Shown piece by piece: positions 36,412 to 40,629 of a stretch of 64,000 nt of DNA. Below the pieces are notes generated by a model. That model was given only the letters and a program-made list of their open reading frames with translations. It had not been told where the DNA came from and searched no databases. The position numbers and the translations under genes are program-made. The DNA is from Abditibacterium sp. (GTDB lineage Bacteria; Armatimonadota; Abditibacteriia; Abditibacteriales; Abditibacteriaceae), in the NCBI GenBank assembly GCA_965199495.1, contig CBDASK010000003.1:1856001-1920000 (forward strand). Direction: 5' to 3'. Each line of letters starts with the position of its first letter. The stretch's first letter is position 1.

Positions 36412-37422
36412 TTACATTCCGTTGTTCATCATCGTGCCGTTGCTATTCATCATGGTGCCGTTATCCATAGCGCCATTATTCATCGTACCGTTGTTCATCA
36501 TGGCGCCGTTGTCCATAGTGCCGCCCATGTTATTGGTCATGTTGTAGGGCATATAACCCATCGAGTTGGTTTCGGTGCTCAAGTCTTTGGGCGGCTTGCC
36601 ACCTAAAAAGTTGATGTTGAAACCAAGCAGTGGTTTGCGGTTCGACATAACCTTGCCAAAGCCCAAGGGGCCAAGCGTTTGGCCATTCACCGAAATGCTA
36701 TTGGCAGCCACGCGCTTATCGAAGGGGCTGACAACACCGTAAAGCGGGGACTCTTCGTAGCCGCGAACAACGATTTCAGAGTTAGCCAGCAACGGCGTAA
36801 TGCCGGTGGGCGAAGTCGAAGCCTGCACCAAACGGTTGGAATCCGGGACGCGCACCAAAGTTTTGTTATCCAGAACCAGACCCAAAACTTCGCCGTTCAT
36901 CGGGTCGGCCAGATAGCCGGTCAATTTGCCCGACAAAGTCATCTCTTTGGTACCGATTTGAATGTAGGGCGTGGCCTTCAAAACGTCAATCGGGCTGATG
37001 TTGGACGGCATCATCATCGTGGACGGAGTGGGCATATCGGGGCCAACGCCAGCCAAATCATAGTTGGTCATTTTGCCCATCATGCTCGAAGTTACGTAAA
37101 CGCTGGCGCTCGATCCAACCGGATAAAGCGCGGTCACGCGCTGCGCCATCGAAGGCGAAAAGCGCACCATTTTGACGCCATCGGCGGTTTGCACGTCCAT
37201 CGCGCTGACGTATCCGGCGCGATCCACGTAATAATTCTGCACGGTGCCCGAAACCATCATCGGCATCATCGTCGGCGTAGTCATGGTCGAGTTCATCATC
37301 GAACCATCGTTCATCATCGTGCCGTTGTCCATCATCGAGCCCTGCGCCTGAACGCCCGTAGCGCCAGCGAAAGCCATCGCGGTCATTGCAGTTCCAATTG
37401 TCAGTTTCTTGAGTAGTGTCAT
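36412..37422 (-). CDS. Secreted Met-rich repeat protein
   Basis: Signal peptide ending VQA; (D/N)NG(T/A/S)MM repeats at both ends; SD ggag upstream of ATG 37422. Confidence 0.8.
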   Translation of the reverse strand: MTLLKKLTIGTAMTAMAFAGATGVQAQGSMMDNGTMMNDGSMMNSTMTTPTMMPMMVSGTVQNYYVDRAGYVSAMDVQTADGVKMVRFSPSMAQRVTALYPVGSSASVYVTSSMMGKMTNYDLAGVGPDMPTPSTMMMPSNISPIDVLKATPYIQIGTKEMTLSGKLTGYLADPMNGEVLGLVLDNKTLVRVPDSNRLVQASTSPTGITPLLANSEIVVRGYEESPLYGVVSPFDKRVAANSISVNGQTLGPLGFGKVMSNRKPLLGFNINFLGGKPPKDLSTETNSMGYMPYNMTNNMGGTMDNGAMMNNGTMNNGAMDNGTMMNSNGTMMNNGM

Positions 37423-37541
37423 TTTATTTTCTCCGTGAGGATTTTCTGCCGTCTCACACTTTAATTCTTTTAAAATAAAAGTGCAAGCGACAAGTCGGTT
37501 GAGGTGACTTGCAAATGGAAGACCAATTGCGGATGCCGAAA

Positions 37542-38258
37542 TTACACTCCGCGTTTGTTGCCCCACAGCAAAACGTGGAGTTGCGGCGTCAGCGTCACGT
37601 CGAACCACTTCTCCCGCGCGCACCGTTCCAGCAACCACTCCAATTTTTGCGTCAACGCGGCGTTGTCGGCGTTCTGGCCAGTCATCACCGAATCGTTGCC
37701 GATGGATAAATAAAATGGCACATCAGAATGCAACTCGTAAACGCGGCGCGCGAACCCGAAATCGGCTTCATCGAATACGACAATTTTAATCGAAATCTGC
37801 GTATTTTTCGTTCCGCCGCGCGCGATTTCCAGACAGCGCGCCAAATTTTCCGCCGAAAACTCCATTTTCGACGACGGCGGCTTGGGCGACAAAACCAGAT
37901 GATCCAATTCGCCCAACCAATCGGGCGCTTTGGACGCCTGCGTTTCGAGCGCGAACGTGTGTCCGCGCGCGTGTCCGATTTCCAACAGCTCGCGCAGTGG
38001 CTGCAACGCTGGGTTGCCGCCCGAAAGCGTGATTAGAATCGGTGCGCCGCCGCTCAACCGTTCGACTTCTTCGAGAATTGCGGGCGCACCCATTTTTGTC
38101 CAATCGCTTTTGTGTTCGGGCAAAACAGCGTAAAGCGTATCGCACCATTGGCAACGAAAATCGCAGCCACCGGTGCGCACAAAAACCGTCGGGCGCCCGA
38201 TGAGCGCGCCCTCGCCTTGAATCGTTGGGCCGAAAATTTCGGAAATTAAAATCGACAT
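37542..38258 (-). CDS. queE: 7-carboxy-7-deazaguanine synthase
   Basis: EIFGPTIQGEG, CDFRCQWCD, LSGGNP, LSPKPPSS, PQLHVLLWG. Confidence 0.95.
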   Translation of the reverse strand: MSILISEIFGPTIQGEGALIGRPTVFVRTGGCDFRCQWCDTLYAVLPEHKSDWTKMGAPAILEEVERLSGGAPILITLSGGNPALQPLRELLEIGHARGHTFALETQASKAPDWLGELDHLVLSPKPPSSKMEFSAENLARCLEIARGGTKNTQISIKIVVFDEADFGFARRVYELHSDVPFYLSIGNDSVMTGQNADNAALTQKLEWLLERCAREKWFDVTLTPQLHVLLWGNKRGV

Positions 38259-38317
38259 TGGCTGAACTTGATACTTTTAGTTTGACGAGAACACGTCAAA
38301 TAGAGCATACTCCCCCG

Positions 38318-38758
38318 GTGCATAATAATTGGGGCAGAATCTGGCTAAGCGCGGCGTTATTGCTGTTGTCCGGCCTGTCGTCGCCCCTGACGTGGCTGGC
38401 CTCGGCGGCTCCGTCACCATGCGCGATGCCGTGTTGTTGCCCGCAAGCAGCGATGGCAGCAGCCACGCCGTACGCACCGTGTTGCCAAATGCAGCCCGCG
38501 CCGTTGCCAATCGGCGTCGCGATTGTCGCTCCGGCGCGCGCGAGTTGGAGCAAAGCGTCGCTCGACGCGATTGCCGCTCCCGCGATTGCCGTTTCCACGC
38601 CGAAATTCACTTTTACTGCGTCTGCGCCGCTAATTTTCCCCGCCGAATCCGCAATTTCTCCATCTAATGCGGCGGAGCGGCGGATTTATTCTTGTCGCGC
38701 TCCACCTGCAAATGGCGGACATTTACTAACGCTTCAAGAAGGAGGAAAACTCACATGA
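38318..38758 (+). CDS. Exported Cys-rich leader protein with a RAPP motif (DUF2946/CutF/CruR-like architecture)
   Basis: Probable GTG start 38318; signal-like helix, CAMPCCCP...PCCQM, Ala/Pro linker, SCRAPP; TTGACG-18-CATACT just upstream. Confidence 0.65.
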   Translation: MHNNWGRIWLSAALLLLSGLSSPLTWLASAAPSPCAMPCCCPQAAMAAATPYAPCCQMQPAPLPIGVAIVAPARASWSKASLDAIAAPAIAVSTPKFTFTASAPLIFPAESAISPSNAAERRIYSCRAPPANGGHLLTLQEGGKLT

Positions 38759-38853
38759 TTATCGAACTCACCGTAATGGCGTCCGATTGCTGCGAAGGTT
38801 GCGGCGGAAGCTGCTCCGACGGCACCTGCACTTGCAACTGCTGCGGCAAATAG
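38755..38853 (+). CDS. 32-aa metallothionein-like peptide (not in the ORF track)
   Basis: MIIELTVMASDCCEGCGGSCSDGTCTCNCCGK; AAGGAGG SD; ATGA overlap with the leader stop; terminator follows. Confidence 0.8.
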   Translation: MIIELTVMASDCCEGCGGSCSDGTCTCNCCGK

Positions 38854-38865
38854 GCCCACACAACT

Positions 38866-38906
38866 CAACGCCTCGCAATCCAAAAGATGCGGGGCGTTGT
38901 TTTTTA
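38866..38906 (+). terminator. Intrinsic terminator
   Basis: caacgcctcgca...tgcggggcgttgtttttt. Confidence 0.8.
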
Positions 38907-39428
38907 GTTCAGCAAATCGCGTTGCCGCAAAAATTCATGCAACGGATGAGCGGGCGCCGTATGGGCGGCGACGGCTTGAGCAAAGCCGCGCGGGTCTCGC
39001 AAAATAAGAGGAATTGAAATACGTTTGCCGTTTGCCATCGAAATGACAGCGTAGGGCAAAAAGAACCACTTGAGTTCGACACCAACGATTTGCGACCATA
39101 CAAATTCGCGCCACGCAAACCATCTGTCGAGAATAATAATTCCTTGGGCGCTTACCTCAACTGACAGCGCCCACATAAAGCACAAACACAATAAAAGTTC
39201 CGTCGCCGTCAGGAGAGCTATCGCAGTGACCATCGCCATATAAAAATCAGCCGTGCGGAACATAAACACCGGGCGAATCATAACTCCAATCACAATGGCC
39301 GAAGGCACCACGACTTGAAGAAATACGGCGAAGAAATACGGCAGAAATCGGCGTTGAAACTTCAGAACTCCACCCGCTTCGGGTTGGCTTTTCTGTGTTT
39401 CGTGCGGATCGGCGATGGGCGGTTTCAT
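38904..39428 (-). CDS. Hypothetical membrane protein (paralog of 39432-39959)
   Basis: Two TM helices then VSAQGI...REFVWSQI...IPLILRD. Confidence 0.7.
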   Translation of the reverse strand: MKPPIADPHETQKSQPEAGGVLKFQRRFLPYFFAVFLQVVVPSAIVIGVMIRPVFMFRTADFYMAMVTAIALLTATELLLCLCFMWALSVEVSAQGIIILDRWFAWREFVWSQIVGVELKWFFLPYAVISMANGKRISIPLILRDPRGFAQAVAAHTAPAHPLHEFLRQRDLLN

Positions 39429-39431
39429 CGC

Positions 39432-39959
39432 TCAAGTTTCGTCATTCTCAAAGAACGCGCGCAACGCGCAAGTCGGCGGCGCCCACTGCTTCACCAAACT
39501 TTCAAATTCGCCTTGTTCGCGTAAAAATAGCGGAAGCCAGATGATATTACGACAGTTCGGCGTCGAGAGCCGGGCGAATCGCGTAAAAAATAGCCAGCGA
39601 ATTGGCGCGACTTTGACGATTTCGTCCCACGAAACCTCGCGTGCTTGTCCCCAGAAGTTACGCGCGCGCAGACCGTTTTGGTTGACGATAACCGGAAAAC
39701 AGCGCGAGACAATCGCTGCCACCAAAACACCGCCGACCGCGATTTTAAGCGCCAACAACAACGCGAAGACAAAGCGCAAATGGCTCGGCCCCTGCCACAA
39801 CAGTAGCAACAGCGGCCACGCGCCCGGCACGGTTTGCGACAACGCGAACGGTGTGAATTCCAGCCGAAACGCGCGCCCGGCAAAACCGCCGCGCGGCGCG
39901 AGCGCGCGATAAATCGCGGGGCCAATCGAATTTGCTCGCATGAAAATTGGGGCCGACAA
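39432..39959 (-). CDS. Hypothetical membrane protein (paralog of 38904-39428)
   Basis: Two TM helices then VNQNGL...REVSWDEI...LPLFLRE. Confidence 0.65.
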   Translation of the reverse strand: MSAPIFMRANSIGPAIYRALAPRGGFAGRAFRLEFTPFALSQTVPGAWPLLLLLWQGPSHLRFVFALLLALKIAVGGVLVAAIVSRCFPVIVNQNGLRARNFWGQAREVSWDEIVKVAPIRWLFFTRFARLSTPNCRNIIWLPLFLREQGEFESLVKQWAPPTCALRAFFENDET

Positions 39960-39960
39960 T

Positions 39961-40629
39961 TTACGAGTAAATCGTCGGGTCGCTCACGCCCGCATCGCGA
40001 AACGCTTCGATGCGTTCGACGCACGTCCCGCATTTACCGCAGTGCAAAGAGCCGCCTTCGTAGCAGCTCCACGTTTTCTCGAACGGCACGCCCAGACGCG
40101 CGCCCTCGCGCACGATGCCAGTTTTATCGGTCTGGGTAAAGGGAGCGTAAAGTTCCAGATCGGGCGCGCCAAAACCTTGATTGGCCAATTTTTCCATCTG
40201 CTCGAACGATTCGATAAACGCCGGGCGGCAATCGGGATAAACGAAATGATCGCCGCCGTGAACGCCAATCGCCACACAATTCGCATTACACGCGACCGCC
40301 GCGCCGTAAGCCAGCGCCAGAAAAATCGCGTTGCGATTGGGCACAACCGTAATTGACATATTGGGCGCCGCGTAATGTCCGTGCGGTACCGCGATATTTT
40401 CATCCGTCAAAGCCGAGCCGCCGATGAGCCTGCCGAAATTACTCAAATCAACGATGTCGAAATCGGCACCTAAATCTTGCGCGCAAACACGGGCAAATTC
40501 GAGTTCTTTACGGTGTTTCTGTCCGTAATCGAAGGCGAGCAGATGCAAATCATAACGTTGCGAATGGAGCGAATAAGCGAGCGTGACCGAATCGAGGCCG
40601 CCCGAAACAATGGCGATGGCGCGTGGCAT
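39961..40629 (-). CDS. queC: 7-cyano-7-deazaguanine synthase
   Basis: SGGLDS, YGQKH, VPNRN, YPDCR, TWSCY...CGKCGTC. Confidence 0.97.
   Translation of the reverse strand: MPRAIAIVSGGLDSVTLAYSLHSQRYDLHLLAFDYGQKHRKELEFARVCAQDLGADFDIVDLSNFGRLIGGSALTDENIAVPHGHYAAPNMSITVVPNRNAIFLALAYGAAVACNANCVAIGVHGGDHFVYPDCRPAFIESFEQMEKLANQGFGAPDLELYAPFTQTDKTGIVREGARLGVPFEKTWSCYEGGSLHCGKCGTCVERIEAFRDAGVSDPTIYS

Follow-up and report, generated by a model that had tools for sequence, protein, structure and literature searches.

A candidate RAPP arrest leader overlapping a tiny cysteine-rich peptide gene in Abditibacterium

The stretch analysed here, 64,000 nucleotides of an Abditibacterium sp. genome (assembly GCA_965199495.1, contig CBDASK010000003.1, positions 1,856,001 to 1,920,000; hereafter the window), carries a compact unit of two overlapping genes. 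The first encodes a leader protein that has a Cys cluster between its export-type N-terminus and a RAPP motif near its C-terminus, and the second is a small open reading frame (ORF) for a 32-residue Cys-rich peptide. By analogy with known systems, we think it probable that these two genes make up a self-contained device for translational control and that it belongs to the CutF/CruR class, with an arrest leader that would control a metallothionein-like peptide. This reading is built on the anatomy of the unit, its conservation in related soil bacteria, selection on the small ORF and the presence of leaders of the same build at metal genes of the same genome. The device itself is known; the tiny Cys-rich target, the sequence family and the signal-less form of the target are absent from the literature searched. 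The genus Abditibacterium has a cultured member. The unit in the window is laid out as follows.

38282-38311, + strand: promoter-like site, TTGACG (38282-38287), an 18-nt spacer and CATACT (38306-38311); 9 of 12 consensus matches
38318-38758, + strand: leader gene, an upstream ORF (uORF) of 146 codons with a GTG start, a TGA stop (38756-38758) and no Shine-Dalgarno (SD) site
38339-38410, + strand: N-terminal hydrophobic segment of the leader, residues 8-31, IWLSAALLLLSGLSSPLTWLASAA, following Arg7; read from the sequence
38420-38485, + strand: leader Cys cluster (C35, C39, C40, C41, C55, C56), the presumed sensing site from its conservation and spacing
38690-38707, + strand: SCRAPP, codons 125-130 (RAPP is codons 127-130, 38696-38707), the presumed arrest site
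38708-38758, + strand: leader tail, 16 codons from RAPP to TGA; peptide sequence not conserved
38740-38746, + strand: SD site AGGAGGA of the small ORF
38755-38853, + strand: small ORF, 32 codons, 8 Cys, no signal peptide; translation MIIELTVMASDCCEGCGGSCSDGTCTCNCCGK
38866-38905, + strand: intrinsic terminator, hairpin 38866-38899 followed by U6; folded against shuffles

The initial annotation had listed this promoter-like site, the leader, the ATGA shared by the leader TGA and the small-ORF ATG, the SD site and the terminator, and each was found where it had been placed. That observation was confirmed and the interpretation attached to it was, overall, partly supported. The terminator hairpin folded at -21.5 kcal/mol (z -4.55) and none of 200 shuffles was equally stable; a consensus terminator scan of 1.2 kb missed the hairpin (loop >8). 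The proposed promoter is present at its 9 of 12 matches, but the 1.2 kb scanned held two promoter-type sites against 0.8+-0.8 in shuffles, so the call is weak by itself. Judged by conservation, and not by the window sequence alone, the unit as a whole is nonrandom.

Relatives were surveyed in 27 genomes of the family, including 13 of the genus Abditibacterium (G000 is the window genome). Leader and peptide units were found in 11 of the 27, in the genus Abditibacterium and two sister genera. Genome G004, of the same genus, has the same pair with the ATGA overlap, the SD site and the terminator. The pattern CRAPP-spacer-GGAGG-ATG matched in six of the 13 genus genomes, where a reversed-pattern control matched none. 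In each of the six, the motif closes a leader ORF that has a signal and a Cys cluster before SCRAPP; an SD site, a small ORF rich in Cys and a hairpin resembling a terminator come next. The window's hairpin was folded, and the hairpin and T-rich stretch of the five other loci were identified by eye. Outside the family the pattern gave 21 matches and the reversed control matched 10 genomes, so most of these 21 are probably chance.

Because this first search was defined by the motif, a reverse search was made from a profile of the secreted peptides encoded by most units. Over the 27 family genomes it returned 21 matches at E<=0.1, nine of which were small signal-bearing Cys-rich ORFs. Each of these nine true secreted-peptide genes is preceded, on its own strand, by a signal-and-Cys ORF that ends in R[AG]PP. 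The search added units in G007 (with RGPP), G010, G012, G014 (another genus) and G021 (a third genus), which brings in genera g3 and g5. One ambiguous match, L062 in G011 (a 56-residue frame with 6 Cys, E 0.059), had no RAPP ORF upstream and does not resemble the family. The expectation that synteny, Cys and RAPP would be conserved in relatives was thus borne out in 11 of 27 genomes, with RAPP or RGPP kept and with P38, C39 and C40 invariant in the seven leaders aligned. In other resources, a genome-collection scan with a three-sequence alignment returned the G004 locus only, two metagenome scans found nothing, Rfam gave no family at threshold for the window unit, and atlas look-ups gave only unnamed clusters (scores 0.78-0.85).

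In order, the leader has an N-terminus that is basic and hydrophobic (residues 7-31), CAMPCCCP (35-42), PCC (54-56), an Ala/Pro-rich middle and SCRAPP. Its N-terminus, examined by eye, has Arg7, a hydrophobic run (8-27) and an ASA-type site, and stays under the 2.0 cut-off in a 15-residue hydropathy window; it is probably a Sec signal peptide or a membrane anchor. This hydrophobic segment is the best-conserved stretch among the leaders of G000, G004 and P0004. In all seven aligned leaders P38, C39, C40 and the S, C, R, A, P and P of SCRAPP are invariant. RAPP is swapped for RGPP in one unit (G007), and every complete family member seen has one or the other. The RAPP Arg of the window leader lies 70-91 residues downstream of the Cys cluster, with 70 residues between it and the last cluster Cys. 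Behind RAPP, the tail has 16 residues in the window and G004, 2-6 in most relatives and 33 in G009; compensating 1-nt indels place the G000 and G004 tails in different reading frames with the ATGA overlap retained. The ratio of non-synonymous to synonymous differences (pN/pS) of the leader is 0.26-0.60. These comparisons indicate that the leader is fast-evolving except for RAPP/RGPP, the Cys cluster and the export-type N-terminus. Its homologues include G004 (59% identity) and P0004, the only relative from a word-indexed protein search; a profile search of 1.84 billion representatives gave nine proteins at E<=0.001, and all complete ones had the same build.

No SD-like tetramer was found at any of 13 leader starts. 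The small ORFs of the related units, 11 of 11, have an AGGAGG-type SD whose end lies 8-12 nt ahead of the ATG. In the window the -10 element CATACT ends 6 nt upstream of the leader GTG, which suggests that the leader transcript is leaderless. G004 keeps the -10 as TATACT, 6 nt ahead of the leader ATG, and does not keep the -35. A -10-like hexamer stands 6 nt before the leader start codon in G000, G004 and G001, and the residues YTPPVH and HTPPVH that gene callers placed ahead of P0004 and P0014 would encode the same -10 plus spacer. These sites suggest leaderless leader mRNAs in the subgroup of G000, G004, G001, P0004 and P0014. Two further irregularities were seen at leader genes. The G005 leader (L014, 1114-1116) has ATA where the near-identical G006 has an ATG start, which may be a non-canonical start, a recent leader loss or a sequencing error. 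P0014, a 311-residue metagenome protein, starts like the window leader and then runs through shifted frames across the expected SCRAPP and small ORF; either an assembly error or frameshifting in a copy of the signal-less unit may lie behind it.

The small ORF encodes 8 Cys in 32 residues (25%), all of them in the last 21 (38%). The peptide has no Phe, Tyr, Trp or His and its Cys fall in CC, CxC and CxxC motifs, a spacing that, without aromatics, is typical of metal thiolate clusters. It thus has the broad metallothionein composition of high Cys, CC/CxC/CxxC and no aromatics. The G004 peptide is 83% identical with indels in frame, and metagenome contigs from three runs span the small ORF with 0-3 differences. 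Its pN/pS is 0.25 for G000/G004 and 0.00 for G005/G006 (4 synonymous, 0 non-synonymous changes), 0.32 and 0.26 in two further close pairs and 0.49 in the more distant G005/G001 pair. These ratios indicate that the small ORF is under purifying selection at the protein level. The peptide has a signal peptide in 9 of 11 units and none in G000 and G004. Those nine secreted peptides have 6-11 Cys, and the core of the window and G004 peptide can be aligned with them (CCxxC...C.DGxC...CCG). The peptide-profile search of the family genomes found no secreted-type copy in G000 or G004. Five unnamed relatives were retrieved from a 5.8-billion protein collection by word-indexed protein search.

RAPP and the small-ORF AUG are 55-85 nt apart in nine of the 11 units, whatever the position of the leader stop. 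This points to the stall site, rather than the stop codon, as the conserved landmark. The exceptions are G010 and G012, where the distance is about 430 nt. Long stable helices are predicted in the roughly 410-nt spacer of these two, which may be a decayed gene, another regulatory RNA or nothing of note.

The window genome has six more leaders, each with a basic and hydrophobic N-terminus, Cys/His clusters and a C-terminal xRAPP followed by 1-4 residues.

L043, 394-882, contig C3, + strand: paralogous leader
L044, 181-585, contig C3, + strand: paralogous leader
L045, 227-640, contig C3, + strand: paralogous leader
L046, 6982-7410, contig C3, - strand: paralogous leader
L047, 7006-7440, contig C3, - strand: paralogous leader
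L048, 6975-7439, contig C3, - strand: paralogous leader

Downstream of the six stand three OEP / CusB-type / (AcrB) RND operons, two cupredoxin or copper-binding sets and one redoxin. The copper sets are a 667-residue plastocyanin-type protein and a cluster with a cupredoxin and a YtkA-CusB-cupredoxin fusion. The initial annotation had stated that leaders with a signal, Cys and RAPP control downstream copper genes, and these same-build leaders ahead of metal-efflux and cupredoxin genes agree with it. L043 is 33-36% identical to the leaders ahead of Cys peptides in G010, G012, G014 and G021. Three of the six lie within about 40 kb (C3:456682-500300), a region that looks like a metal-resistance island.

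According to PMC12992588, RAPP and RGPP arrest translation, and uORFs with these motifs are found in many phyla ahead of metal and thioredoxin genes. This functional class includes ApdA, ApdP and CruR (PMC10951233, PMC12992588). In CruR and CutF, as reported, a stalling motif and a Cys motif make downstream expression copper-dependent (PMC9426467, PMC9973294, bioRxiv 10.1101/2025.02.05.636593). The window leader has the properties of the class: fewer than 300 residues, a conserved motif near the C-terminus (127-130 of 146) and a position directly upstream of, and co-directional with, the small ORF. The likeness to CutF, CruR and DUF2946 drawn in the initial annotation therefore stands for the functional class of RAPP/RGPP uORFs; membership of DUF2946 does not, by hidden Markov model (HMM) or by spacing. 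Against PF11162 (DUF2946; curated cut-off 23.7 bits) the window leader had no match, and a six-frame search of the whole genome gave at best 10.4 bits, at L046. Over 17 distinct leaders (four only to E<=0.01), sub-threshold end-to-end matches were P0011 at 16.3 bits and L046 at 11.9 bits. DUF2946 proteins are described with a CXXC (CruR) or CxxxC (CutF) about 45 residues before RAPP, the spacing kept within 1-2 residues (PMC9426467). We rejected DUF2946 membership on the missing HMM match at threshold, the other Cys motif and spacing and the longer tail.

CutF of the Rhodobacter capsulatus cutFOG operon (PF11162) is, in the published descriptions, a small exported protein that combines a Cys motif for metal with a proline stalling motif at the C-terminus and controls the next gene in cis (PMC9973294, bioRxiv 10.1101/2025.02.05.636593), features that the window leader would share. 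Some CutF-like genes overlap the downstream gene (PMC9973294), and CutF-like genes stand ahead of OEP/RND efflux genes, as do paralogous leaders of the window genome. Unlike CutF, the window leader has no PF11162 match, its Cys cluster is CxxxCCC...CC rather than CxxxC, no SD-masking stem-loop above chance was seen in the window, and a 32-residue Cys-rich peptide takes the place of the multicopper oxidase as target. The phylum also differs from the Pseudomonadota and Bacteroidota prevalent in the published lists. CruR (Bp2923 of Bordetella pertussis, DUF2946) likewise is a uORF with a signal, a Cys motif and RAPP that heads an operon; RAPP is required for control of the downstream gene and the nascent chain is reported to perceive copper (PMC9426467). 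Its CXXC lies 45 residues before RAPP and its RAPP 3 from the end, against a spacing of 70-91 and a tail of 16 in the window. As described, CruR works via Rho-dependent termination in a 162-bp intergenic region, whereas the window unit has no intergenic region. Copper also lowers the CruR target, and the level of a metal buffer should instead go up. The uORFs of the GTDB-wide RAPP/RGPP survey (PMC12992588) resemble the window leader in their size below 300 residues, in RAPP/RGPP close to the C-terminus, in conserved Cys and in a localisation signal, which is predicted for the window leader; the genes downstream of them act in metal homeostasis or thiol redox. The targets named in the text of that survey are annotated ones (TonB receptors, YcnI, PCu(A)C, PepSY, DsbA/thioredoxin), and an unannotated Cys-rich peptide of 32-62 residues is not among them, although its supplements, outside our scope, may list more.

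The window peptide shares with the bacterial metallothioneins SmtA/BmtA (PF02069) a small size, high Cys content, CC/CxC/CxxC motifs and a lack of aromatics. MymT is a further bacterial metallothionein. Unlike SmtA/BmtA, the window peptide shows no sequence match, has no His ligands and is shorter (the PF02069 model alone has 51 positions), and most of its relatives carry a signal peptide. PF02069 matched nowhere in the window genome.

Stalling, its effector, the sign of regulation and metal binding are the steps that we infer. By analogy with CutF and CruR, the leader may be a co-translationally exported sensor whose RAPP pause is tuned by what the Cys cluster meets. The nascent leader would be exported co-translationally via its N-terminal signal. 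During the RAPP pause the Cys cluster, 70-91 residues upstream, would already be out of the ribosome and able to reach the periplasmic side, where a ligand, most likely a thiophilic metal such as copper, would alter the duration of the pause. Pause duration would in turn set the yield of the downstream Cys-rich peptide. Two routes are conceivable: a ribosome stalled on 38687-38717 would keep the anti-SD segments at 38689-38699 and 38701-38707 off the SD site, or, alternatively for the window, ribosomes released from the pause would terminate at ATGA and then re-initiate. The peptide would act as a metal buffer, cytoplasmic in the window and G004 and periplasmic in most relatives. A possible if doubtful extension is that the window and G004 units form a trans-membrane relay, in which a periplasm-sampling nascent chain sets the level of a cytoplasmic 32-residue metallothionein-like peptide and relatives make a periplasmic version with the same sensor.

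The first of these routes was assessed by folding. The initial annotation had noted that TCCACCT (38701-38707), within the RAPP codons, can pair with the SD site. The segment is pairable at 6 of 7 positions and the pairing occurs in one minimum-free-energy fold; a second candidate anti-SD segment, UUCUUGUCGCG (38689-38699), pairs beside the SD site in one fold. Masking, however, was no better than in shuffles. Opening the SD site in the window cost 6.27 kcal/mol; the shuffles gave 6.71+-1.55, and 85 of the 150 were at or above the observed value. With a stalled ribosome modelled over 38687-38717 (stall geometry from PMC10951233), SD relief was 1.82 against 0.43+-1.22, a value reached by 19 of 150 shuffles. 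Masking or relief was within shuffle range also in G004, G006, G001, G009 and G007. Unmasking by a stalled ribosome beat the shuffles in G021 and G014 (0/50 each) and marginally in G005 (3/50). Both RAPP Pro codons are synonymously changed in G004 and in the metagenome contigs of three runs, changes that alter the pairing and speak against a functional role for it. Anti-SD pairing was rejected as evidence on the shuffle-range energies and the synonymous changes; it may still contribute. An RNA switch common to all units was rejected too, with two of nine units clearly beating shuffles and one marginally.

The folding results in the window and in G004, G006, G001, G009 and G007 weigh against an arrest leader that controls a metal-binding peptide, and several other results join them. 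Neither the leader nor the small peptide had a Pfam or NCBIfam match at E<=1, metallothionein PF02069 included, and the peptide had no PDB match; composition is what suggests that it binds metal. Exported Cys-rich peptides would be prone to periplasmic oxidation, which is compatible with a redox role too. RAPP lies 16 codons before the stop in the window against 2-6 in most relatives, and the distance from the last cluster Cys to RAPP varies over 56-81 residues across the family against the conserved 45 of DUF2946. In G010 (L058, - strand) and G012 (L066, - strand) the peptide gene starts about 410 nt past the leader stop, so close coupling is not universal. No RNA run was listed as containing the window stretch.

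An unlikely alternative is that the leader is a redox or disulfide sensor of envelope oxidative folding and the peptides are disulfide-rich products or thiol sinks. One RAPP leader of the window genome does stand ahead of a Redoxin/AhpC-TSA gene, RAPP/RGPP uORFs are reported ahead of DsbA and thioredoxin genes (PMC12992588), and nine of 11 units encode signal-bearing peptides bound for an oxidising compartment. However, the genes behind five of the six paralogous leaders are for metal efflux or cupredoxins, the signal-less window peptide would remain in the reducing cytoplasm, and its Cys spacing is typical of metal thiolate clusters.

We consider it quite improbable that the unit is a plain two-gene operon, with a stable exported Cys protein (a peptide chaperone or anchor), a structural RAPP and no regulatory arrest. 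ATGA overlaps are common in operons, 146 residues is within the size range of real small proteins and no RNA switch above chance was seen in the window. Against this, conservation in the leader is limited to the signal, the Cys motif and SCRAPP, and the middle and tail drift, to the point that the tail frame differs between G000 and G004. The sole replacement for RAPP is RGPP, which PMC12992588 names alongside it as a strong arrest motif. The contrast between SD sites at 0 of 13 leader starts and 11 of 11 small ORFs is also as for a low-output regulatory ORF.

The genes around the unit bear on a third alternative. Flanking genes vary among units (FkbM methyltransferase, CinA, glycosyltransferase, HAD hydrolase and others), and because the neighbours differ in every other genome the unit seems to move as a self-contained cassette. 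In the window, the unit (+ strand) and two tandem genes for weakly bPH-like membrane proteins (38904-39428 and 39432-39959, - strand) stand between genes that we read as queC (39961-40629, - strand) and queE (37542-38258, - strand). Farther out, an ORF of 408 residues (36412-37638, - strand) begins with a signal-like segment and carries repeats rich in Met, Asn, Gly and Thr at its two ends (e.g. MMNNGTMNNGAMDNG). It had no family match, and its Met-rich runs suggest metal binding.

The small ORF could in principle be a modified-peptide precursor or bacteriocin and the first gene its accessory or immunity protein, which we regard as very unlikely. The peptide has a short leader-like N-terminus (MIIELTVMASD) followed by a Cys/Ser/Thr-rich core, and a radical SAM gene adjoins the unit. 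That gene, however, reads as queE, a name taken from its length (238 residues) and the adjacent queC-like gene, with Radical_SAM and Fer4_12 hits sub-threshold only, and no known peptide-modifying enzyme or exporter is common to the flanks of all units. It is barely conceivable that both frames are open by chance in DNA between genes: neither ORF has a family match, but their conservation across 11 genomes with in-frame indels, synonymous bias, SD site and terminator already contradicts it.

The pairing of such a leader with a tiny Cys-rich peptide, which the initial annotation did not know to be described, was not found in the literature searched, the supplements of PMC9973294 and PMC12992588 lying outside its scope. 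Metal-sensing arrest leaders have so far been linked to annotated genes for oxidases, receptors, efflux pumps and chaperones. The target here is a tiny and mostly unannotated Cys-rich peptide, and surveys that rely on annotation would therefore miss the unit. If the unit is indeed an arrest leader that controls a metallothionein-like peptide, it would represent a new output class for metal-sensing arrest-leader switches, and its peptides would be candidates for a family of very small bacterial metal binders, some exported and some not. Signal-bearing and signal-less targets behind one sensor type would then be a natural pair, which bears on how a periplasmic signal is converted into cytoplasmic protein output. 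Should the trans-membrane relay hold, the cytosol would be buffered before metal entry, a feed-forward use of arrest peptides, and bacteria would have a so far unrecognised class of very small metal-binding peptides, both exported and cytoplasmic.

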